From an uncultured Chthonomonadaceae bacterium (lineage in GTDB: Bacteria > Armatimonadota > Chthonomonadetes > Chthonomonadales > Chthonomonadaceae), in contig CAWIEK010000001.1 of the NCBI GenBank assembly GCA_963835065.1, positions 96,001-160,000 of the forward strand: a stretch of 64,000 nt of DNA, read 5' to 3'. Each line of letters starts with the position of its first letter. Within the stretch, counting starts at the first letter, position 1. The notes under the pieces are model-generated. The model was not told the DNA's origin and ran no database searches. It saw only the letters and a list, made by a program, of their open reading frames with translations. Below are positions 8,607 to 61,778 of the stretch, piece after piece. The translations under genes and the position numbers were made by a program.

Positions 8607-11102
8607 TTATAGCGTACCGGCAAATTGGATTCGCGCCTGAGTCAACTTCTCTTCCGCTTCAGCAACGGCGTTGACGTATGTTTGTTCCTGTCGGCGCAAT
8701 GTCGAAGAAACACGCTCCTGCGCTTCCAAATCCGTGAGCAGATCAATCATAATTGCGTCAACATGCGCAGGCGTCAGTTCAATCAACCCTGTGGAACCGG
8801 TGTACAAACGCTCTATCTGTTTTGCTCCGAAACCACAGCGCAGATAATCGCACAGGTACTCAGGAACAATCCGGGACAGGTCTGCGCGAATAATCGTTAC
8901 ATGCCCGTCTGCTATAGCAGGTTTGTCGGAACGATACACGCAGCATTTGCCGAGCGTTCCATCTCCCGTTGACGCAAGCAAAACATCTCCTTGCTGAATC
9001 AGGTTCAGGTTTTCCTTGCGTTTTACACTATTCTCAACATACTCGTCGTACAGGCTTTTCTCAATGTAATCCCCTTCCACAAGCAACTGTCCCAACTTGG
9101 AGATGTTACTGCCTGCCTTTACCACGAGCGCGTAACCATCTATCTCATCCACGTACATGTCTGCCGGAGGGCTGCTTCCCCGGCTGGTTTTAATCAAATT
9201 GAGCGATTGAACGCCTGCGCCAGCCGTATGCAGCGAATTAATTTTGGCGCGAATGTCCGGCTCCCAATACTTGTAATCAAGACGATACGTGGTATCCGCG
9301 ACAATATTGCGACTTTCCACATCAAACGCCATCCAATGATAACCGGCGCGCGGGCTGGGCGCGGCATGGTTGAGAAAATCATTCTCTACTTCGCGCAGCA
9401 GCCGCTCAAAATCGAAGCCGCGAATAGTATCCCCGGAGCCAATATAGCCGAGGGATTGCAAATCGCAGAAAGTGACGGGGTAGCGTTCCGCAAAATCAAC
9501 ATCTTCCTGTTCAAGCCGCTGCATGTACAGTACGCTGGAACGCACGTTGATCTTGTTGGGCTTAAATGTATCTTCCGGCAGGCGCAAAACCGCTTTTATA
9601 CGGCAATTTTGCAGCAGCCATTTGCGCAGCTCCGTCGCGGTATCTGTATTCAAGACACCTTCATCAATAACCGTGCAAATCTCTCCTCCAGGCTTTGTGC
9701 TGCACACCATTTTTTGAAGGAACAGCAATTGCCCTTTTGCCGTCGGCACGGGGTAGCCTGTCAACTCTCCTTTTGCGGACGAGTCGGATTCCGAAGTGCC
9801 AAACGGCGGATTGGTCATAATCAAATCGCAGTCCGCCGCGTTCATATCCCAACTCCGCGCGCTTTTCACCAGGCTGTTTTCGGCGCGTATATTGGTGTGT
9901 CCATCGCCCAAAATAATCATGTTCATCTTGGCGGCACAAGCAACGCCATTGTTGGCATCCGCGCCATAAAAAACAAATTCAAACATGCTTTTACGGATTT
10001 TTTCGTGCGTGGCTTGATTGATGCGTTTTTTTTCAAGCTGTTCGCCGAGCAGAACTAAATTTGCCTGCATCATATAAACGAGAAAGCCGCCGGTTCCACA
10101 CGCCGGATCAAGAACTTTGATGTTTGTGCCGGTAAGCAGGGCATTCAGAATCTTTTCCCGCCCCACCAGATACGACATGACCGCAATCAAAGGGCGCGGC
10201 GTAAAGTATTGGCCCAGTTTTTTGCCCTTCAAGGTAGCCCGCACGTAATACTCGAACGCCGCGCCTTTGGAATCCAAATTGCTGTCATAGAAGGATACTT
10301 TAGAAAGTTCATGGACGATATAGGCGAACGTTTTTGGGTTTTTCAGGCGTACCGGGTCTTCCAAAACATCCCCGTAGGATGTTTTCTGCTTGATTTGTTC
10401 AATCATGCTTTGCACAGCGTCTTTCACCCGGTCGCTTTGGTTCTCCGGCGTTGCCGCCAGTTCAAAAAAACGGTAGGTGTAAGGGAGCATGAAATCAGAC
10501 AGGTCGTGTTTTTCCTCCAACAATTTTAGAAACAGCAGTTTGGAAAAATCCGCGAAAGCGTATTCCTCATCCTTTTCTATCTTGCGAATGGCGTTGTGGC
10601 AGCGCGCGAACAGCCCGTTCAGTTGCTTCAAAGGCAAGCCGGGACGGAACGGAAGGCTTTGGTCTTGTGACAGGGCAACATCCGCGGAGTTCGGGTTCGC
10701 TTTTAGCGCATTGATGACAATCGGCAGCTGCGCTTTTGTTGGTATGCGCTCCGATAGACTGCCATTCCATCGAATCGGCTGGCCGGTAGCCGTGTTGAAG
10801 CACTGCACGTCTGTACCATTTGTCACAACCACAAACAGCACATTCAATGATTTGGCGTAAGCAATCGCCTGATCACGGTTTTTTGCGCTGAGAATTTTCG
10901 AGGAACGCTTGGCTTCAATCAGAAACAATGAGTGCGGCTTGCCACAGGTGACCAGTATATCCACATAGCCTTTGGAGTAGTTATCCGTCTTCTTTACAGC
11001 CGTTTCAAAGTCCAGGTCTTTGACAATATCATAGCCGCGCCGGGACAGGTACGGAAGTATCTTCTTGATAACAGTTTCCTGCTCGGTCTGAATGTTGGAC
11101 AT
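8607..11102 (-). CDS. Single-chain restriction endonuclease / N6-adenine methyltransferase / specificity protein (type IIG-like)
   Basis: N-terminal HsdR_N-like PD-(D/E)xK (VDIL...IEAK). GQYFTP, DPACGTGGFL and NPPF motifs. C-terminal TRD-like region (GDVLLASTG...TLGK). Confidence 0.85.
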   Translation of the reverse strand: MSNIQTEQETVIKKILPYLSRRGYDIVKDLDFETAVKKTDNYSKGYVDILVTCGKPHSLFLIEAKRSSKILSAKNRDQAIAYAKSLNVLFVVVTNGTDVQCFNTATGQPIRWNGSLSERIPTKAQLPIVINALKANPNSADVALSQDQSLPFRPGLPLKQLNGLFARCHNAIRKIEKDEEYAFADFSKLLFLKLLEEKHDLSDFMLPYTYRFFELAATPENQSDRVKDAVQSMIEQIKQKTSYGDVLEDPVRLKNPKTFAYIVHELSKVSFYDSNLDSKGAAFEYYVRATLKGKKLGQYFTPRPLIAVMSYLVGREKILNALLTGTNIKVLDPACGTGGFLVYMMQANLVLLGEQLEKKRINQATHEKIRKSMFEFVFYGADANNGVACAAKMNMIILGDGHTNIRAENSLVKSARSWDMNAADCDLIMTNPPFGTSESDSSAKGELTGYPVPTAKGQLLFLQKMVCSTKPGGEICTVIDEGVLNTDTATELRKWLLQNCRIKAVLRLPEDTFKPNKINVRSSVLYMQRLEQEDVDFAERYPVTFCDLQSLGYIGSGDTIRGFDFERLLREVENDFLNHAAPSPRAGYHWMAFDVESRNIVADTTYRLDYKYWEPDIRAKINSLHTAGAGVQSLNLIKTSRGSSPPADMYVDEIDGYALVVKAGSNISKLGQLLVEGDYIEKSLYDEYVENSVKRKENLNLIQQGDVLLASTGDGTLGKCCVYRSDKPAIADGHVTIIRADLSRIVPEYLCDYLRCGFGAKQIERLYTGSTGLIELTPAHVDAIMIDLLTDLEAQERVSSTLRRQEQTYVNAVAEAEEKLTQARIQFAGTL

Positions 11103-13254: not shown

Positions 13255-15337
13255 ATGACCGCCGTAAAGCATACGAACCGCTTGGCGCAGGAAACCAGCC
13301 CGTACCTGCTCCAGCATGCCCATAATCCCGTAGACTGGCACGCCTGGGGCGAAGAAGCCCTTGAACTTGCCCGTACCCAAAACAAGCCGATTTTGCTTTC
13401 CGTCGGCTATTCCGCGTGTCACTGGTGTCACGTCATGGAGCGCGAAAGTTTCGAGAACGAGGCCATTGCCGCCATTATGAACCGCGAATTTGTCTGCATC
13501 AAGGTAGACCGCGAGGAGCGCCCCGATGTGGACGCCATTTATATGAGCGCGGTGCAGTTGATGACCGGGCAGGGCGGCTGGCCCATGACCGTGTTTATGA
13601 CGCCGGACGGCAAGCCGTTTTTCGGCGGCACGTATTTCCCGCCCCAGGATATGTACGGGCGTCCCGGCTTTCCCCGTATTCTGGAAGCCGTCGCAACCGC
13701 CTGGCAGACGGAAAGGTCGGGCATTGAATCGCAATCCGATACCATTCTGGCGCACATGGATCAGGGCAACGACCTGACGCGCGATTTGCCCGACAGCCTG
13801 CTGACGCCCAAGATTCTGGAAAACGCCTACAACACGCTGTCCTCTTCCTTTGACCGGCAGCACGGCGGCTTTGGCAGCGCGCCCAAGTTCCCGCAGCCCG
13901 CCAATCTGGATTTTCTGCTCCGCTTCCACGCGCGGGGCAAGCGTCAGGAACCCTTGCAGATGGTGGAAAAGACGCTGCAAAAAATGGCGTTAGGCGGCAT
14001 GTACGATCAGTTGGGCGGCGGCTTTCACCGCTACAGCACGGATCAAACTTGGCTCGTGCCCCACTTTGAAAAAATGCTCTACGACAACGCGCAGCTTGCG
14101 CAAACCTACGCCCACGCCTTTCAAATCACGGGCAAAGCGTTTTACAAGGGTGTGGCGGAAGAGACATTGGAATACGTTCTGCGCGAAATGACCGGCGCGG
14201 AGGGCGGCTTTTACTCGGCGCAGGACGCGGACAGCGAGGGCGAGGAAGGCAAGTTCTTCGTGTGGACGCCCGCAGAAGTCGTTACCGTGCTGGGCGAGCA
14301 GGACGCCAAAATCTTCAACGCGTTTTACGACGTGAGCAAGGGCGGCAACTGGGAAGGCAACAGCATCCTGCACGTTGTCATGGACGCGAAAGATGTGGCG
14401 CAGCAGTTCGGCTTGAGCGTGGAGCAGGCGGCGCAAATTCTGGACAAAGCCCGCATTAAAATGCTGCAAGCCCGCGAACAGCGCGTCAAACCCGGCCTTG
14501 ACGACAAAGTTCTGACCGCGTGGAACGGCCTGATGCTGGCTGCCTTCGCGGAATGTGGCGCAATTTTCAACCGTCAGGACTTCATCAACGCGGCTATTAA
14601 AAACGCGGACTTCATTTTAAGTCAGTTGGTACAGGCTGACGATAAAACGCGATTATTGCGCGCGTATCGCAACGGGCAGGCGAAACTAAACGGCTATCTG
14701 GAAGATTACGCTTTTTATGCCGACGGCCTGCTGCATCTGTATCAGGCAACATTTGAAGCAGAAATGGCTGATGGAAGCGCGCAGCCTTGCGGATAACATG
14801 CTCGAACACTTCTGGGACGAGGAACACAGCGGCTTTTTCACGACGAGCAATGACCACGAACAACTGGTGCAGCGGCTGAAAGATTTGGACGACAACGCCA
14901 CGCCAAGCGGCAATTCCGTTGGCGTGGAAGTTCTGCTCAAACTATGGGCGTTTACGGGCAATGAGCGGTATCAGCAGTGCGCGGCCCGCATCCTGCGCAA
15001 ACTCGGTCCGGTTCTGGAAAAGCATCCCTACGGCTTCGCCCGCTTGCTCGGCGCGCTCGACCTGTACCTGTCCGGCCCGCAGGAAATCGGACTGCGCGGC
15101 GAACCGTCCGACCCGGCCACGCAAGCCATGCTGCGCGCCGCCTTCACGCCCTTCCTGCCCAACAAAGTGATCGGCCTGACGCATCCCGGATTCGGGAATA
15201 CAGGGCACGGCATCGCGTTCCTCAACGACCGCCCCGCCGTAAACGGCCAGCCCACCGCCTACGTATGTCAAAACTTCGCCTGCAAAGCGCCCGTCACCAC
15301 CGCCGAAGCCCTTGCGCGACAGTTACAGGAGATATAA
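13255..15337 (+). CDS. Thioredoxin-domain DUF255 (YyaL/SPATA20-like) protein, apparent frameshift near 14760
   Basis: [22 protein letters not shown] and [11 protein letters not shown] motifs. C-terminus ([18 protein letters not shown]) lies in ORF 14717-15337. Confidence 0.9.
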
Positions 15338-23358: not shown

Positions 23359-23531
23359 GCAGTTGAAAGCGGATAGTTCGTAGTTGATAGAGATACAGCC
23401 GCTGCGAACATTCACTGCCCTTGCGTTTAGCCTTCCGCGCTTTCAGCGCGCCTTATGACATATATCACTACACATCCTGACCCTACAACGGCAGGTCTGA
23501 TGAGGCCACCTCCTCATGAAAGGAATGGCGT

Positions 23532-24128
23532 ATGACGCCTGAAGCATTGCCCATCCAACGCGCGCTGATCTGTGAAGACGAAGGCGTGACCGTGATGCAG
23601 ATACGCAAGGCGCTGGTTCGCGCCGGTTATGATGTTGTCGGCGAAGCGGTCGAGGGCCGCAAAGCCATTGAAATGGCGCAGGAATTAAAACCCGACTTGA
23701 TCCTGATGGACATCAACATGCCGGGTCCCATTGACGGCATTGCTGCCACCCGCGAGATTTTGAAGCATCAGCCGGTTCCCATTATCATGCTGACGGCCTA
23801 CAGCGATGACTCCTATGTAGACAACGCGCTGGACGCCGGAGCCTGCGCGTATCTGGTCAAGCCCATCACCAGCGAACAACTGCTGCCCGCAATCAAACTC
23901 GCCATGTCCCGTTTTCAAGCCTTGCAGGACGCGATTAAAGAAGCGACCGACATCAAGGACGCGCTGGAAACCCGCAAAATGGTAGAGCGCGCCAAGGGCG
24001 TTCTCATGGATCGCCGCTCCTTGAGCGAATCGGACGCTTTTCGGCAAATGCAAAAAATCAGCCGTGACAAATGCCAAACGATGAAAGTAACCGCGCAGGA
24101 AATCATCAAAGCGAGCGAATTGCTGTAG
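23532..24128 (+). CDS. REC-ANTAR response regulator (PdtaR/NasT-like)
   Basis: EDE, LMDINMP and YLVKP receiver motifs. ETRKMVERAKGVLM...AF ANTAR domain. Confidence 0.92.
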   Translation: MTPEALPIQRALICEDEGVTVMQIRKALVRAGYDVVGEAVEGRKAIEMAQELKPDLILMDINMPGPIDGIAATREILKHQPVPIIMLTAYSDDSYVDNALDAGACAYLVKPITSEQLLPAIKLAMSRFQALQDAIKEATDIKDALETRKMVERAKGVLMDRRSLSESDAFRQMQKISRDKCQTMKVTAQEIIKASELL

Positions 24129-24549
24129 ATCGGTATTCGTACACTCCTCGCGATGGGAGCCGAATCACCCTGTCAGCCTGTTTCTGCGCCGTAGTGACGA
24201 CACATTACCATGCCGTGAGCGCCGCATTTCCGCCGATGCCGCGCCCTGCAAGAATCCGTCTGTTCCTCCTGCCTGCCTGCATCCTTCCCACTACCTCATA
24301 ATATCCTCTGCCCTTATTGCGCTTACTCCTGTGCTTGCAGGAAACGCCGCTATCCTTCTTGAATTCATCTGATACATTCAACTGGTGCCAGGCGTTGAAA
24401 ACGCCTGTCTTGGTGGCGTTCCGCCAGGCGTCCTAGGGACGCAATTCCTTACCTACAGTGTTCTGCGTCCGTAGGACGCCTGGCCGCAGGCCATAGAGAC
24501 GGTGGTTTTCAACCACTGGCTCAAGGTGTCTGATGCAGGAGAAGCGACC

Positions 24550-25362
24550 ATGCCGGTACGTGTACAGCGTTTGGAAGACGCCCCTACGTTTCGCGCTATG
24601 CTGCCGGAGCAGCGCGAAAAACTGACGGGGCTGTTGGAGTATTGCCATTTCCATGCCGGCGAACTGATTTGCGAACAGGGCGACGTGGGCGACACCATGT
24701 ACTTCATTGAAAAGGGAGAAGTGACATTTTTCGCCAAAGAAGCGGGAGGCGTTCTCAAAGAATTGCGCACTCTGGTAGCCGGGGACTTTTTCGGGGAAAT
24801 CGCGCTGCTCAACAATACCCCGCGCTCCGTAACGGCACAGGCCAAGACCGAAGTTTTCGCGCTGGAACTGCGCCGCGACAACTTCGACGCCTTTTTGCTG
24901 GCGCATCCCGACATGGCGGTAAGAATGTTGCGCGTGATGGCGAAATGGCTGAAAGACAACGCCGATATGATGGGCGATATGATTACCCCAAGTACGAAAA
25001 AGGATTTGGATGCCCTCCGCACCACAACGGAAAAGCGCATCGAGCGGCTGGTCGGGCTGTTCAGTAACCCCGTTTTCCTGCTGGGCAACCTGCTCGTGTT
25101 CATGCTCTGGATCATTGCCAATGAACTGCATCATCCGCCCTGGGACAGCCGCGAGTTCGGCTTTTTGGGACTGTTCGCAGCCATCGAAGCCCTCGCAATG
25201 ACGATGCTGGTGCTGGCAAAGCAAAAACGCGACGAAACGGACGCCAACCGACGCAACGACCTGATTTTAGAAAAAGTGCAGACTTCGCCGGACGAAATAA
25301 AAACACTGCGCGCAGAAGTCCGGGCGCTGACGGCAGTGATTCGCGGCCAGCAAAAACCGTAG
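24550..25362 (+). CDS. Cyclic-nucleotide-binding domain plus DUF1003-like two-TM membrane protein
   Basis: QGDVGDTMYFIEKGEV and GDFFGEIALL...PRS phosphate-binding cassette. Two C-terminal TM helices and a coiled coil. AGGAG SD. Confidence 0.85.
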   Translation: MPVRVQRLEDAPTFRAMLPEQREKLTGLLEYCHFHAGELICEQGDVGDTMYFIEKGEVTFFAKEAGGVLKELRTLVAGDFFGEIALLNNTPRSVTAQAKTEVFALELRRDNFDAFLLAHPDMAVRMLRVMAKWLKDNADMMGDMITPSTKKDLDALRTTTEKRIERLVGLFSNPVFLLGNLLVFMLWIIANELHHPPWDSREFGFLGLFAAIEALAMTMLVLAKQKRDETDANRRNDLILEKVQTSPDEIKTLRAEVRALTAVIRGQQKP

Positions 25363-25370
25363 AATTCGCG

Positions 25371-25450
25371 TTAGAACCTATCCCAATAGGCGAGAATTCG
25401 CGTCCGCAGGACGCTTGCACTTTCCTGCCGGGTATTTTCAATACCCGGCC
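25371..25450 (+). mobile_element. MITE-like element, copy 2 (right TIR missing)
   Basis: TTAGAACCTATCCC, then CGTCCGCAGGACGCTTGCACTTTCCTGCCGGGTA...TACCCGGC matching copy 1. Confidence 0.7.
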
Positions 25451-25500
25451 AGAAGGCAAGAACAATGCGCAAGTAATGTAAGGCAGAATAGAGGCCTCCC

Positions 25501-28183
25501 GTGTCCAACCCTTATCCTACCTTTTTGATGCTCGACATAGAAGGCTCCTCCAAAATCGCGCGCAGCCTGTCGCGGCAGGAATATCTGGAACGAGTCAACA
25601 TTCCCGTTTATGCGGAGTTGAAGCGTTTGATTGCGCGGCATCAGGGCGACGATGAGCGGGACGCCGCGCGGCGACGATGCGCTTGTCGTCTTTGCCCATG
25701 TCAATGACGCGATAGAATGTGCCGTTGCGATCCAAAAATCGCTGCCGAAACGGATTGCGGCCGGATACGTCGGAAGGCGCTCACCGAATCGGCGTGCGAA
25801 TCGCCGTACATACCGCCCGCAAGCAGGTGCAGCCGGACGAAAATGGCTTGTACCCCAATGCGGAAGATGTGATTTTTACCGCGCGCATGTTGGTCAATGT
25901 GTACGGCGGGCAGATTGTCGCTTCAGACGAGACGCATCGGGTTGCGGACAGCCTGCAATGGAACTGGCAGGCATGGCCGAACCGCCGCATCAAGAGTTTC
26001 GAGGAAAAGCCGTACACGATTCATGAACTGCTGTACGAGGGCTGGACAAGCCGGGAGCCGGGGTCGCAGTTTGTGCCGGGCTGGTTTCGGGAAAAGAACC
26101 ACTACGTTTCACGCCCGGAACTGGAAAACAGCGTTGCGGACTGCTTTGCGCGCCGGACGGGAAACAACAACCCCTATCGGCTCGTCACGCTGCACGGATT
26201 TGGCGGCATGGGCAAAACGCGCCTTGCCATGCAGTGCTGTTTGAACGCGGCGGGCATGTTCGAGGGGCAACTGTTCCTGACGCCATTGGACGGTATTCCC
26301 GATACCGCCCTGACTTCGGACTTGGCGCGCAGGGATTATCTTGTCGGCAGCATCGCCAGAACATTCGGGCTGGCAGATCCGCCCGCCACGCCGGAGAATT
26401 TGCCGGAGCGCCTGCCCAACAAGGGCAGTATGCTGCTGCTTCTGGACAACTACGAAACCGTAAAAGGCGCGGCTTCGGCGCGTTTGATCGTGGACATGCT
26501 GGAAGCGCGTCCCGATTTGCGCCTGCTCGTCACGGGCCGAACGCCGGTCGGCCTGACAACAGGGGAAAGCGTTCAGGATGTGGAAGGATTGCAGCCGGGG
26601 GAAGCGCGCGATCTGCTGCTGACTCGTATCGGAGAGAAAAAGAACAACCCTCTCTGGTCGCCGCTTTCCTCGCAGGAACCGGCCATAACAACCATACTGG
26701 AACAAACCGCGCGTATTCCATTAGCGCTCGAACTGGTTGCGGCGCATTGCGGCGACATGACATTGGAAGAAATCGCCGCCGACCTGAGCCTTGAGCCACT
26801 GGGAGAAATAACCGAAACGCCGGACGGAATGTACAGCCTTGATCCGAGTTGGAGGCATCAAACGCTGGTAAAATGCTACAACTGGTCATGGCGGCTGTTG
26901 GACGAGGAAGCGCAGTTCGCGCTTGTCTGCCTCAGCCTGTTCGCGGACAGGTGCCCAACCGAAGAGATAACCGCCTGTTTCGACGCAATCAAGCGTCCGC
27001 ACCTCACGCGCTTACAGCAAGCGGCGCTGGCAACGCGGCAGGAGGCAGGAGGCCGCAGCGTGTACTCCCTGCTTCGCCCCACGCGCCTTTATGCCCGTAA
27101 ACGCCTGCAAGAAAGTGATGATGAAAACATTGAAAAGCGCCATTTCGTCGCCTATTACCGGCACCTGGCGCGGGAAAATGGCGGCAGCGCGAATACCGAG
27201 GATACGGAGAAACGAGCGCGACTGGAATCAGCATGGCGTCACGCCATGTCAGCGGCGGATATTGCGGGGGAATTGGAAGATGCGGAGTCCAGTGGCGACA
27301 TTGCCGATAAGTTAATCCATTTTGTGCATCGTCAGGCGCTCTGGGCCGAGGGAACGTTCCTGTACACGCGCTCGCTGGACATTCGGCGCAAAGCGTTGCC
27401 GGACGGCCATCCTGACATTGCCACCAGCCTCAACAATCTGGCGTTGTTGTACGCAGTCGCAAGGCCGCTATGCCGAGGCCGAACCGCTGTACGTACAGGC
27501 GTTGGACATTGAGCGGGAGCACTTAGGCAAAGAACATCCAGCACTTGCCATCGGTCTCAACAATCTGGCAGAGTTGTACCGGTTACAAGGCCGCTATGCC
27601 GACGCCGAACCGCTGTACATACAGGCGTTGGACATTCGGCGCAAAGCGTTGCCGGACGGCCATCCTGACATTGCCAGGTAGCCTCAACAATCTGGCGTTG
27701 TTGTATGCGTATCAAGGCCGCTATGCTGAGGCCGAACCCTTGTTTGTGCAGGCATTGGACATTCACCGTCAAGCCTATGGCGAACAGCATCCGCTTGTTG
27801 CCACCAGCCTCAACAATCTGGCGGGGTTGTACTGGTCACAAGGCCGCTATGCAGACGCCGAACCGCTGTTCTTACAGGCGTTGGACATTGATCGTGTGGC
27901 ATTGGGAGAGAACCATCCAGACTACGCCATTGACCTCAACAATATGGCGGGGTTGTACCAGTCGCAAGGCCGCTATGCCGAGGCCGAACCGCTGTACATA
28001 CAGGCGTTAGACATTCTCGTTGTCAGTTTAGGGCCGCGTCACCCGAACACGATTACAGGTCTCGGCAACTTCCTGAGAATGCTTATCCATCAGGAACGCA
28101 TGGAGGATGCCGGAGCCTTCTTATCCGCAAAGCCGGAACTTCAAGAAACGTTTGCTCTCCTGCTTGCTCAGCAGTCGGCGTAG
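25501..28183 (+). CDS. Class III nucleotide cyclase - STAND (NB-ARC-like) NTPase - TPR protein, several apparent frameshifts
   Basis: TFLMLDIEGSS, GDD, RIAVHT and ARM...GGQI cyclase motifs. GFGGMGKT Walker A and LLLDNYE Walker B. Kinesin-light-chain-type TPRs. Split over ORFs starting 25501, 25631, 25719, 27322 and 27545. Confidence 0.8.
27376..28010 (+). repeat. TPR-coding ~126-bp tandem units
   Basis: Repeated CTCAACAATCTGGC and CAAGGCCGCTATGC blocks. An identical ~48-bp stretch at 27376 and 27629. Confidence 0.8.
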
Positions 28184-28190
28184 CGTCGGC

Positions 28191-28377
28191 GCGTTGTGGC
28201 GACGCACTGAAGTGCTTCGCTGTATGGCCTGCGGCCCGGTGTCCTTCGGACACGCTTGTCTCTCAGGCTGGCATGGCGTATGTAGGGAAGATGCCATCTC
28301 TCAACGAGAGGATTATGTCCGCAGGACATTGGGCGGAACGCCCTACAGCGAAGCACTTCAGTGCGTCGCCCTAACGC
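28191..28377. repeat. REP-doublet-like palindrome, intergenic relative of 7744-7900
   Basis: 34-bp arms with 2 mismatches. Shared CTTCGCTGTATGGC and GTCCTTCGGACA. Confidence 0.85.
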
Positions 28378-28379
28378 AC

Positions 28380-28632
28380 AAAGCCAGAAAAAAAGAGCCA
28401 AACAACGCGAAACAAACGAAACCTTTGCCTCACTCATCCTGTCTAAACATACACATACGTCTACTGTACAGGCGTTATACCCACAGGAAGGGAGGTGCAA
28501 AGCCTATGTTTCACCCCTCCCGTTCGCCCTGACGCTTACGAGGTCACGACGCCTCTCTCCTACAATTTGACACAACGAGACATCGGGCTGGAAGCGCTGT
28601 ATTGCCAAGATTTCGACGATGACTCTACATAC
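28380..28632 (+). repeat. ~250-bp duplicated unit, copy A (ECF-like promoter plus small ORF)
   Basis: Near-identical inverted copy at ~43487-43760. GAAACC-N17-GTCTAA at 28418-28446. GTG at 28495. Confidence 0.85.
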
Positions 28633-28707
28633 TCTTTTTGTCCCCGTTCTTGTCAGCAAATATGCGCTATAATAAACGTATCGCGCCGCAGGAAAGGAAA
28701 TGTCAAC

Positions 28708-28914
28708 ATGCCCGTGCTGGAATTGACCGATGAGCAGGTTGTAACTCTACTACAGCAATTGCCGGAAGCGCAGAAGCAGCGCGTTCTCCTGCGCCTGCAA
28801 GAACCGTCAGAAGCGCCGAAAACGCCGAAGTTTGGGATTGCGAAAGGCGCTATACGTTACATGGCTCCTGATTTTGATGCGCCTTTAGACGATTTCAAAG
28901 AGTACATGGAATGA
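28708..28914 (+). CDS. DUF2281-like antitoxin (VapB-type)
   Basis: C-terminal FGIAKGAIRYMAPDFDAPLDDFKEYME. GGAAAGGA SD and upstream TATAAT. Confidence 0.75.
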   Translation: MPVLELTDEQVVTLLQQLPEAQKQRVLLRLQEPSEAPKTPKFGIAKGAIRYMAPDFDAPLDDFKEYME

Positions 28915-28945
28915 CGCCTCTACTACTGAACAGGAAAGAAACGGC

Positions 28946-29552
28946 ATGACAAGTACGCTAATTGCCCCTGAAAACGAAACCTTCCCTAACCGCCGACGCT
29001 GGACGCGTCAACAATGCGAACGCCTCGTTGAGATCGGGGAACTTGTTGGACGCTACGAACTGATTGATGGGGAGATCATTTCCAAGATGGGCCAGAATCC
29101 ACCACACCGCATCACGATAAAATTGCTGTTACACTGGCTTATTGGCATATTCGGTGATTTTTATGTGCAAACAGAAGACCCCATTGCCATTCCCGGCGAA
29201 GAAGGCGAAACTACGGAACCGGAACCCGATGTTGCCGTCACTCTCGAACCGACAACCGCCTATCATCAACGCGCATCCCGGCCCCGACGACCTGCTACTC
29301 GTCGTTGAAGTGTCGGATACCACGCGCCGTTTCGATCTGACAACGAAAGCCCTGCTCTACGCCCGTGTCGGCATCCGCGAATACTGGGTCATGGACATTA
29401 CGGAACGCCAAATTCATATTCACCGCGCGCCCACACCCGACGGTTACGCAGATGTGACCATGCACGACCCGGAAGCAATAGTTTTCATTGCCGACCATCC
29501 CGAAACCGCCATTCGCGCCGCCGACCTGTTTCCGCCTATCGCATTAGATTGA
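28946..29552 (+). CDS. Uma2-family endonuclease, apparent frameshift near 29275
   Basis: RYELIDGEII, EPEPDVAV, LVVEVSDTT...KALLYARVGIREYWV motifs. Confidence 0.85.
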
Positions 29553-29620
29553 GTTGGCGCAGAGCGCGTAAAGCGACACAGAGCGCGTAAATCGCCGCGT
29601 AGCGTCCGTGCAATAAATTG

Positions 29621-29739
29621 CGCGGCTATGATAACGTAGGGACATAACATGTTATGTCCTGCCTTCGCGGACTCCATCGTATAAAAATGATCTCTACCGC
29701 ATTGAGTCCGCGTAGGCGGACTTCGTTATCATAGCCGCG
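29621..29739. repeat. Nested REP-like palindromes
   Basis: Outer IR CGCGGCTATGATAACG / CGTTATCATAGCCGCG. Inner GCCTTCGCGGACTC / GAGTCCGCGTAGGC. Embedded GGACATAAC-AT-GTTATGTCC hairpin. Confidence 0.8.
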
Positions 29740-29825
29740 ACAAAGAGATTAAAATAAGTTACTCACGGCGCTTACGGGAACCCTAATACCTAACACCTAA
29801 CACCTAACACCCAACCGAGGTTTGC

Positions 29826-44962: not shown

Positions 44963-46700
44963 TCACCACAGCCCGGATATACGCCCTGTCCTCGCAATAC
45001 TGCCGCACGTACGCCACGACTCGGATTGTTAGAAAATGCCTTCCGGCAACACGATGCCTAATCTGCCGCCGGGTTTCAGCAGCGACAAACACCGCTCAAT
45101 AAACAAAACCTCCGTCTTTACTTTGCCTTTGCCGCCCCCGCCCATGTCGAACAGACTGGCGATAGGATCGCCTTCCGCCCCTTCCAGCCGCGCCAGCGCG
45201 TCCCGATACAAACTGCCGTACTCCTGCTCGTAGCGCCGCTGCGCGTCCCGGTCTATCTGGTAATCGCTGTCGCGCACGATGTCGGACGATTTCACATTCG
45301 ACCCGAACGGCGGATTACTCATAAATGATATCGAACCGCCCCTCAAAAATGCCGTTCACATTCAAAAACCCGTTATGATGGTGTACGCCGCCGTGTCCGT
45401 CACCGTGCATAATCATGTTCATTTTACTTGTACGCGCCATCCGGTCGTTTGCGTCCGTGCCGTACAAACAGCGGTTTGACAGTTTCCAAAGTGGCGAATC
45501 CCGTTCCCTCTGGTCGAGTTCCTTCTGCCGCCAAGCGTCTTTCTGCCGCAGCAACTCGGCTTTCTGCGCATCGCTCAGGTCAGCCCGCGCGTTTGTTTCC
45601 GCTTCAAAGCGGCGATATTCTCCATCCACGCTCTGCGTAATCTGTTCGCGCACCAGTTCAAACGCCCGAATCAGAAAGCCGCCCGAACCGCTGGCCGGAT
45701 CGCAAATCACGTCACCCGCTAGCGGCTGTACCATGCGTACCATAAATTCAACAATCGGGCGCGGCGTGAAAAACTGCCCGATTTCACCCCGAAACGTCCG
45801 GCCTAAAAAGCGTTCAAACGCAATTCCCTTAATATCTTCGCTCGTATCGCTCAGGTTGTACCGCTCCAGCAGGCCGACAATTTCCATACTCGTCGCCGGT
45901 TTCAGGTTGATCTTTTGGCTGGTCTCGTCCACAAACAGCCGGTCGTCACGATAGTACAGTTTTGTCAGGTCGAACAGGGAATTGATAGGATCGTCGCCAA
46001 GCTGCTCCTTGAGATAGTCCTGCGTGAAACGATTCTGCCGCAGCTTCTTGCGTTTCAATTCCCGCTCTACATACACTTTGACAAACAAAATTTTGGCGAT
46101 TTCATCAAAAGCCGCAGCCGGGTTTTTATGTTCGCGGTTCCGAATAACGTTGTGGCATTTGTGCAGCAGGTCGGCAAACTCATCCTCCCGGAACGTTTTC
46201 AGCTTTTCGATAAGTTCCTTTATCTGCTTGTCGTTGTCGCTGGCATGGGGAATGTCGGTAATCTCTTCCACATAGCCGGGCATTTTGTCTTTCAGGACGC
46301 GCCAATAGCGCGTTTCGCGGTTGTTGTGCGTGACAAAAAACGGCGCATCTACAAACCGCGCGTAGTTTTCACCCTGCTGATAATCCTTTTCCGAAATGGT
46401 CACGTTGTCCGACTTGCACTCAATTACGATCAGCGGACGCTTCTTGTCGGCTTTATCCTGCGCTGTCCGCCAGATAACAAAATCAGCGCGGGCATGGGCG
46501 GAACCCCTGCCCGTCAATTCCAACTCTTCCGCCATTTGCTCAAGTGGATAGCCGTATTCGTTGACCAGCGTACAAAGATACTCCTGCCGAACGCGCTCTT
46601 CGGGCTGTTCTACAAGATACATTTTACGAAGCGGACTATAAATCTTGTTGTTACTGCGCTGAACCGAAAGGTGGGAAGGGGAAGGCATCGCCTGTGTCAT
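44963..46700 (-). pseudogene. HsdR_N - N6-methyltransferase fusion, frameshifted and 3'-truncated
   Basis: PEERVRQ, ADFVI...IECK, GQFFTP, DPASGSGGFL, SNPPF and LPEGIF motifs. Homology appears to end after RAVVS, with no TRD. Confidence 0.75.
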
Positions 46701-60965: not shown

Positions 60966-61778
60966 TTACGCGGGCTTTACCCCACTGAAGATCATTTGCG
61001 GCGAGGAGGGGGCAAGGGGCCGGCCTCGATAATCTCCGTACACCGTTTCCACCGTAAAGCCCGTGTGCCGGTACAGCAGATGTATCTCCTGGGGATAGTA
61101 GACATGGCTTTCAAAGTCGCTGACGGAGCGTTCCGGCGGCGCGTTCCCCACGTACTTGTCGTAAAGGAAGCGGATACGCGCCTTCTGTTCATGGGCGAGG
61201 TAGCGCGTGGTTTTGTAGCGGATCAGACGGGTGCGGGTTTCCGCGTCAAAGGTATCCAGATCAATCTCGACTAATTCGCGCGGGGGCGAGCGCAGCGAAT
61301 CGGCGTAACTGCTCAGATCAGCCATCGTAACATCCACCACGAAGCGCCCGCCCGGGCCCAGGTTGTCGCCGGCGCAATTCCAGGCGGCGAGCTGATCGTC
61401 AAGCGTCAGGAGGTGGCAGACGGAAGAGCAGGGGGTGACGATCACATCAAAAGGCTGTTCGGCTTTCCAGTCGCGCATATCCCCTTCTACCAGGCGCAGG
61501 CGTTCGCGGACGTCAGGTTCGGCTTCTTCCTGCCGCTTTTGCGCCGCTTGCAGCATTTCGGGAACCAGTTCCAGTCCCACCACCTCAAAGCCATGCGCCG
61601 CGCCCGCCTGCGCCAACGGCAGGGTGACGCGCCCGTTGCCACAGGCGAGTTCCAGTACGCGCTTTGGCTGCAGCCGGGTAACAAGGGACACGAAGAAGTC
61701 AATATCGTCGGTATCTCCCACATGCTCCAGGTCGTAATCCTGCGGGCGCTGGTAAATCGCTTCGGGTAATTCGGCCAT
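60966..61778 (-). CDS. Class I SAM-dependent methyltransferase
   Basis: VLELACGNGR, GDMR and LGPGGRF motifs. Confidence 0.9.
   Translation of the reverse strand: MAELPEAIYQRPQDYDLEHVGDTDDIDFFVSLVTRLQPKRVLELACGNGRVTLPLAQAGAAHGFEVVGLELVPEMLQAAQKRQEEAEPDVRERLRLVEGDMRDWKAEQPFDVIVTPCSSVCHLLTLDDQLAAWNCAGDNLGPGGRFVVDVTMADLSSYADSLRSPPRELVEIDLDTFDAETRTRLIRYKTTRYLAHEQKARIRFLYDKYVGNAPPERSVSDFESHVYYPQEIHLLYRHTGFTVETVYGDYRGRPLAPSSPQMIFSGVKPA

Follow-up and report, generated by a model that had tools for sequence, protein, structure and literature searches.

A mobile gene pair linking a cyclase-STAND-TPR protein to a CNBD-DUF1003 membrane protein: a candidate Pycsar-like anti-phage system in Chthonomonadaceae

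Pycsar and Pucsar systems consist of two genes, one for a class III nucleotide cyclase and one for an adjacent effector, the Pycsar effectors being PycTM (a three-transmembrane protein, pJV1-spdB3) or a cyclic nucleotide-binding domain (CNBD) joined to TIR. The cyclase product, which is cCMP, cUMP or cGMP, switches on the effector, and phage is thereby blocked. A new Pycsar clade has been described, without a STAND in the text available (PMC13069673). Cyclic nucleoside monophosphate (cNMP) cyclases fused to a STAND have been predicted to form an immune clade of their own, 'immune clade 1' (Chakravarti et al., 10.64898/2026.08.12.744502, sections 5 and 15, among the sections available); they also appear in lists of STAND-linked domains (PMC7159879, text available in part) and, together with cNMP-binding domains, of NACHT-fused domains (Kibby et al., 10.1101/2022.07.19.500537, likewise in part). 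The present analysis concerns two genes in a 64,000-nucleotide stretch of DNA (the window) from an uncultured Chthonomonadaceae bacterium (GenBank assembly GCA_963835065.1, contig CAWIEK010000001.1, positions 96,001 to 160,000); the window is part of contig C1 of this genome (G000; 8.0 Mb, 71 contigs). Gene A encodes a CNBD-DUF1003 membrane protein and gene B a class III cyclase fused to a STAND and to tetratricopeptide repeats (TPRs). Sequence comparisons suggest that they constitute a sensor-gated, Pycsar-like anti-phage system with a new membrane effector, a reading to which a probability of roughly 0.55 is given and in which both activity and defence role are predicted.

In its plan the locus resembles a Pycsar system to which a sensor of the Avs kind has been added, yet it belongs to neither group. 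As in Pycsar and Pucsar, a class III cyclase (fold and two metal aspartates present) stands beside its candidate effector; the PycTM family occupies the same slot next to paralogues of gene B, and the CNBD of gene A is like that of PycTIR (PADLOC PycTIR match over the CNBD only, E 9e-12). The gene B cyclase differs in lying outside the PycC clade and in its fusion to a STAND and TPRs, and gene A differs in joining its CNBD to DUF1003, in lacking a TIR and in being unrelated to PycTM. The PADLOC PycC model did not match intact gene B homologues, which are thus not PycC/PucC members; gene A is of neither Pycsar effector type, whereas a paralogous locus on contig C41 has one of them. With immune clade 1, defined by fusion of a cNMP cyclase to NACHT or AP-ATPase, gene B shares the AP-ATPase-type STAND, the predicted immune role and fast evolution; the difference is that the available text of 10.64898/2026.08.12.744502 names and tests no effector for that clade, and a figure or table in it may list neighbours.

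Gene B resembles Avs and bacterial NACHT proteins in its order of N-terminal enzyme, STAND with intact Walker A and B motifs, and C-terminal repeat sensor, and differs from them in its predicted output, a diffusible messenger that would act on a membrane protein encoded separately. None of the Avs/NACHT models of PADLOC 2.0 matched intact gene B homologues at E 1e-5, the only matches being to a generic TPR model, and the Pfam NACHT and NB-ARC matches in gene B were below cut-off. The same cyclase-STAND core is found in the cyclase-predicted ATPase-TPR/LuxR proteins of the mycobacterial Rv0386 type; hundreds of distant relatives are named 'predicted ATPase/class 3 adenylate cyclase', and the closest solved cyclase is Ma1120. 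Compared with these, gene B has no helix-turn-helix, a divergent base pocket and an adjacent membrane partner. Ordinary CNBD-DUF1003 proteins have the same architecture and phosphate-binding residues as gene A, whereas the gene A clade is cyclase-linked and more divergent. In the literature covered, part of it in partial text, no description was found of a cyclase-STAND-TPR protein that has either PycTM or DUF1003 as its partner, which subscription papers or supplements may hold, and none was met of how infection switches on Pycsar-type cyclases.

The slot beside the cyclase-STAND-TPR genes is filled by either CNBD-DUF1003 or the Pycsar effector PycTM, and this is so in two separate cyclase lineages. 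In the lineage of gene B, the C41 paralogue has a PycTM gene (PF18967 E 5e-16; PADLOC PycTM 1.5e-26) 106 nt upstream. PycTM was found in 2 of the 42 genomes of the family, one of them this genome, and in both it is directly upstream of a cyclase-STAND of the gene B clade. The second lineage comprises sister canonical cyclase-STANDs of genus g84 (support 1.0; identity in the N-terminal 560 aa 73-76%), which have PycTM upstream in genomes G303 and G284 and CNBD-DUF1003 downstream in G183 and G238 (a fragment in G308). Searches of 401 genomes of the phylum, in which 6-11 candidates per genome were scored, gave 29 PycTM matches in 26 genomes. Nine of these (8 genomes, four families; one below the Pfam cut-off) are co-oriented and directly upstream of a cyclase-STAND; two more are beside a stand-alone PycC-like cyclase, one is upstream of a BTAD-STAND gene and 17 are in neither setting. 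In a sample of 281 Chloroflexota genomes, 1 of 12 PycTM matches (G691, broken) was upstream of a cyclase-STAND. The interchange with PycTM supports the membrane effector that the original prediction had proposed; action at the membrane is itself predicted.

Chance adjacency in a cyclase-rich genome was considered and rejected, crude null probabilities being 7e-7 (at least 5 of 29 PycTM genes) and 3e-4 (3 of 12 CNBD-DUF1003 lineages), figures for which gene number and lineage counts were assumed and whose significance is inflated by kinship. The C41 locus, in which PycTM (L044:4234-4941) is directly upstream of a seemingly intact 900-aa cyclase-STAND-TPR gene (L044:1428-4127), is a cleaner test case than the locus in the window. 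The PycTM gene next to BTAD-STAND, at L323:3-3097 (G349:C256), is directly upstream of a gene that has no cyclase domain. Tandem pairs of PycTM-like genes, with no cyclase found nearby, were observed at L329:5905-7064 (G073:C158) and in L306 (G045:C69).

The pairing of A and B, on the conservation of which the original prediction had been made to hinge, recurs at three other loci in the order A then B, each time with different neighbours: once in the same-genus genome G002 and twice in G020. The G002 pair has a 17-nt gap, sits elsewhere than the window site, and its gene B is of the type found on contig C44 of the present genome. One G020 pair has a 17-nt overlap and the second is joined by a 141-nt contig overlap. 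The pair was found, in addition, on one contig of a relative from public sequencing runs. Cyclases of the gene B clade number 21, in 6 of the 42 family genomes; directly upstream there is CNBD-DUF1003 in 4 cases and PycTM in 2, and neither of them in the other 15. A paired effector is present in 4 of the 6 family genomes that have a clade cyclase, as against 0 of the remaining 36. Two tandem cyclase-STAND-TPR genes of this clade, with no adjacent effector, are situated at L043:7373-12600 (G000:C2).

A tree was constructed from 59 CNBD-DUF1003 rows; L054 was omitted as too short, L059 and L022 are the same gene and were counted once, and the tree does not include G697 and G272, which came to light afterwards. 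Two scans of sequence collections used generic CNBD words, so their counts are among the matches listed and close relatives may be missed. In the wider clade of gene A (support 0.977), 8 of the 9 members with known context adjoin a class III cyclase, the cyclases being of three kinds. In G364 (L245:10577-12796) the CNBD-DUF1003 gene of this clade directly follows a gene that joins a Ser/Thr kinase to a degenerate class III cyclase. Outside the gene A clade, none of 48 rows among the matches listed adjoins a cyclase, 25 of them having at least 3.5 kb on both sides. The mean patristic distance was 1.93 for the 8 cyclase-linked rows and 1.18 for 30 collection-scan rows (among the matches listed). 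Two side observations concern such genes: identical ordinary CNBD-DUF1003 genes occur on two contigs of this genome (G000:C1:222721-223629 and C31:26009-26917), through duplication or assembly redundancy, and in two genomes (G000:C43:2608-7091; L057, G031:C2) a CRP-sized CNBD gene is located near a canonical cyclase-STAND that belongs to one subclade.

Domain searches bore out the initial description of a cyclase-STAND-TPR gene beside a co-oriented CNBD membrane gene. In gene A, PF00027 (CNBD) covers residues 33-117 (E 1e-21) and PF06210 (DUF1003) residues 176-264 (E 3e-13; 50.2 bits, above the gathering cut-off of 27.4). Two hydrophobic segments, predicted transmembrane (TM) helices, start near residues 167-175 and 202-206, in agreement with the two-TM protein first described, for which DUF1003 had not been named. 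The AlphaFold model (pLDDT, the model confidence score, 76) has a CRP-like CNBD whose C-helix is long, then two TM helices, and ends in another long helix; with this model Foldseek matched the CNBD alone. Homology of DUF1003 to PycTM was rejected (hhalign probability 1.4), so that the exchange of the two is replacement by function and not descent. At two C-helix positions, where CRP contacts the base through R123 and T127, W133 and N137 stand in gene A and in the G002 orthologue, against R and S/T in most of 69 aligned relatives. These positions contact the base in CRP (S128), and G86, E87, R97 and S98 of PsPycTIR are the ribose/phosphate-binding equivalents of the intact CNBD residues of gene A (PMC11224242, text available in part). 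W133 and N137 hint at a changed CNBD ligand, without identifying it.

The cyclase of gene B has the motifs DIEGS (D12), TPRGDD (residues 54-59) and VIFTARM (123-129); both metal aspartates, TPRGD and the non-canonical transition-state motif are thus present as originally claimed. An origin of TPRGD as a frameshift artefact was rejected, since according to the contigs of relatives the extra base precedes the motif, which is therefore genuine. For the intact G002 cyclase copy the model (pLDDT 88.5) has a class III fold with Ma1120 as best fold match, and the profile of the clade matched Ma1120 at E 2e-31 and the solved uridylate cyclase 8jsz only at E 8e-6. Across an alignment of 18 sequences (24-54% identity) D12, G57 and R128 are invariant and D58 is nearly so, while the base-selecting positions vary widely. 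Of the canonical adenylyl cyclase residues gene B retains R alone (K is replaced by G or T, D by L and N by I), whereas the second lineage (G183, G238, G303, G284) has the canonical K, D/T, N, R set. Ma1120 is active with A at the transition-state N position (PMC4215837, text available in part), so that the loss of N in gene B does not show inactivity. Since the cyclase pocket and the CNBD C-helix both depart from the family norm, the messenger of the gene B branch is probably other than the standard, K/D-selected cAMP. The suggestion of a possibly non-cAMP messenger is therefore plausible for this branch and does not extend to the second lineage with its adenylyl cyclase residues.

The need for frameshift repair, part of the original prediction, was confirmed with contigs from four public runs of relatives, which are without one base at 25649/25651 and at 25758 (4 of 4 runs each), at 27453 (1 run) and at 27676/27679 (2 runs). 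Omission of the four extra bases yields a single frame of 892 aa with zero internal stops. All four breaks are +1, there is no nonsense change, and one relative's contig is otherwise identical over 189 nt. Assembly error is by far the more probable origin of the breaks, strain-level decay having perhaps one chance in five. An intact, orthologue-like copy of gene B is present in G002 (C11; 68% identity). In its TPR array gene B is 84% identical to the C44 paralogue, as against only 51-54% in cyclase and STAND; all parts are 68-70% identical between gene B and G002:C11, i.e. with no signal of TPR exchange; and G183 and G238 are 85% identical in the enzyme parts as against 42% in the TPRs. TPR arrays thus appear to diverge faster than the enzyme parts (G183/G238) or to be exchanged between paralogues (gene B/C44).

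The A-B pair is an inserted cassette that moves as a unit, non-random and mobile. In G002 the blastn blocks that flank the segment (Table 1) are only 340 nt apart, compared with 4.7 kb here, which corresponds to an insertion of about 4.4 kb. The insertion point is between an ANTAR response regulator gene and a Uma2 gene, the order in G002 being ANTAR regulator, Uma2, trpE; within the segment are both genes of the pair, repeats and the greater part of a small DUF2281 open reading frame (ORF). The hairpin repeat between A and B is not present in the relative's contig that joins the two genes; it is a recent insertion and breaks neither gene. The element that had been called a miniature inverted-repeat transposable element (MITE) is there, folded and in about 200 copies, and may be either a MITE or a REP-like repeat. 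The first of the two elements 3' of gene B also occurs 3' of the C44 paralogue (97% identity). A promoter scan gave 0 sites and the terminator count was at chance level; in a plasmid search gene A had no match at 1e-15, and the homologue of gene B had only distant STAND matches.

On the anti-phage reading, the TPR array would bind a phage product and the STAND module would oligomerise, bringing cyclase domains together into interfacial active sites. Avs proteins bind a phage protein and are gated by oligomerisation of the STAND, which provides the analogy for a STAND-gated cyclase. Class III cyclase active sites do sit at the dimer interface (10.64898/2026.08.12.744502, section 7). The cyclic nucleotide would then bind the CNBD of gene A, the C-helix would shift the TM helices, and these would enter a growth-stopping state, with damage to the membrane of the cell itself; unpartnered paralogues may be extra sensors that signal in trans to the same effectors. 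We infer the cyclase activity, the gating by STAND oligomerisation, the toxicity of liganded gene A and the phage trigger.

Several findings weigh against this interpretation. Fifteen of the 21 clade cyclases are without PycTM or CNBD-DUF1003 directly upstream (one with just 510 nt of flank); the partner cyclase of the G002 pair is damaged, about 150 residues including Walker A being missing, and the partner in G308 is a fragment. Related CNBD-DUF1003 genes in G313 and G697 have no adjacent cyclase that was found, the G697 contig being cut downstream; later searches of two families gave G697 and G272 without an upstream cyclase, both on contigs cut downstream. The gene A clade could be inflated by long branches, and its members are kin rather than independent. 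DUF1003, for which no relation to PycTM was detected, is not known to be toxic, and 17 of the 29 PycTM matches are without a cyclase or STAND nearby, so that PycTM is not always cyclase-coupled in the phylum. No known defence genes were found among the immediate neighbours of the pair, which are mostly housekeeping, only small Uma2 and DUF2281 genes adjoining, and within the window defence-like genes (a methyltransferase and Septu-like genes) come no closer than 13 kb; the defence-island association that the original prediction had named as a check was therefore not seen. Finally, gene B has 4 frameshifts in 2.7 kb against a background of 3 in 35 kb (Poisson P ~1e-4), an excess by which this copy may be decaying.

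This excess, the damaged partners, the mostly unpartnered paralogues and the replacement of all of the K, D and N positions would also be expected if the pair were a relic, in which the cyclase has lost catalysis and only binds nucleotide, or gene B is a pseudogene here, and gene A travels along; inactive cNMP cyclase domains are known from other conflict systems (PMC7159879). Such an origin is improbable, given the conservation of D12, G57, R128 and, nearly, D58 at 24-54% identity, breaks that are uniformly +1 and missing from relatives' contigs, and adjacency to three kinds of cyclase, which is hard to obtain by hitchhiking. Gene A persists beside damaged or missing cyclases in G002, G308, G313 and G697, and its survival without a working cyclase argues against toxicity in the absence of ligand. 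It thereby makes very improbable a reversed signal, in which constant cNMP keeps gene A or PycTM quiet and phage sponges or nucleases that remove the signal release the effector. Guard logic of that kind is described in other nucleotide systems (PMC13640721 and PMC13712596, each available in part), but here it would make the STAND-TPR sensor redundant.

A physiological role is less probable than defence and the most credible of the alternatives: the STAND-TPR would sense a cellular or environmental ligand, cNMP would be made, and gene A, gated by it, would act as a small transporter or channel, perhaps one for a metal ion, and take no part in killing. This genome has 38 cyclase loci, 19 of them with a STAND; in other phyla CNBD-DUF1003 genes are common and do not adjoin cyclases (among the matches listed); and one gene A clade partner is the kinase-cyclase mentioned above. 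By language-model features the TM part of gene A resembles the low-affinity iron permease family (score 0.76, a lead only), and 2 of 30 ordinary CNBD-DUF1003 loci precede CNNM/CorC genes, with one near FUR and one near VIT1. In a scan of 54 flanking ORFs, ordinary CNBD-DUF1003 genes had no neighbours in common; these genes look physiological, iron permeases being a weak lead, and this too counts against a defensive gene A. Conflict systems are the better fit for the exchange with PycTM in two lineages, the patchy spread of clade cyclases (9 of 401 phylum genomes at E 1e-45, 6-11 candidates being scored per genome), the mobility and the turnover of the TPRs.

Should the defence reading prove right, the locus would be a new form of cyclic-nucleotide immunity. 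A broader proposal, made tentatively and held to be less likely than not, is a new class of immunity in which NLR-type recognition is joined to Pycsar-type signalling: expanding arrays of cyclase-STAND-TPR genes, with hypervariable base pockets and exchanged TPRs, would feed one or two shared membrane effectors (PycTM and CNBD-DUF1003), DUF1003 would be a new cNMP-gated membrane toxin, and the gene B branch would use a non-standard cyclic nucleotide. Were the anti-phage interpretation true, it would provide the STAND-fused cyclases of predicted immune role with the effectors they have lacked, and DUF1003 with its first function. Fusion of sensor and cyclase means that a single construct of two genes is enough for testing trigger, signal and effector, and the paralogues paired with PycTM can serve as an internal positive control.

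Table 1. Coordinates of the cassette, its domains and the associated repeats (positions in the window)
Feature	Position	Strand	Basis
Insertion segment without counterpart in same-genus G002	24128..28872	.	blastn blocks 23491-24127 and 28873-29512
Palindromic repeat 5' of gene A	24386..24530	.	up to 35 genome matches
Gene A, CNBD and DUF1003 membrane protein, 270 aa, candidate effector	24550..25362	+	Pfam, AlphaFold model
CNBD with intact phosphate-binding residues G82, E83, R92, S93	24646..24900	+	Pfam, alignment
DUF1003 region: two TM helices joined by a short loop, then a cytoplasmic helix	25075..25341	+	Pfam, model
Intergenic hairpin repeat between A and B	25369..25453	.	~200 genome matches; fold z = -5.1
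Gene B, 892 aa read through four extra bases: class III cyclase, AP-ATPase-type STAND, TPR	25501..28183	+	five frame segments
Class III cyclase domain, both metal aspartates and transition-state arginine kept	25501..26072	+	alignment; model of G002 copy
STAND NTPase: Walker A HGFGGMGKTR at 26193, Walker B LLLLDNYE, VTGR, IPLALEL	26073..27122	+	Pfam, motifs
TPR array, five 42-aa repeats	27300..28060	+	Pfam, repeat comparison
Two adjoining repeat elements 3' of gene B	28184..28640	.	~48 and up to 162 genome matches

Elsewhere in the window, a Septu-like PtuB gene and the C-terminal part of PtuA, seemingly split or truncated, are located at 1294-2516 on the minus strand (PADLOC E 2e-82 and 3e-74), and three DNA methyltransferase genes or fragments are scattered at 8610-11102, 45318-46622 and 60969-61778, all on the minus strand. 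Two more genes are split across frames, both on the plus strand: that of a thioredoxin-domain protein (13255-15337) and Uma2 (28946-29552), which is whole in G002. Palindromic intergenic repeats of at least four families, with 30 to 200 genome matches each, are present at 24386-24530, 25369-25453, 28184-28640 and 29600-29825.

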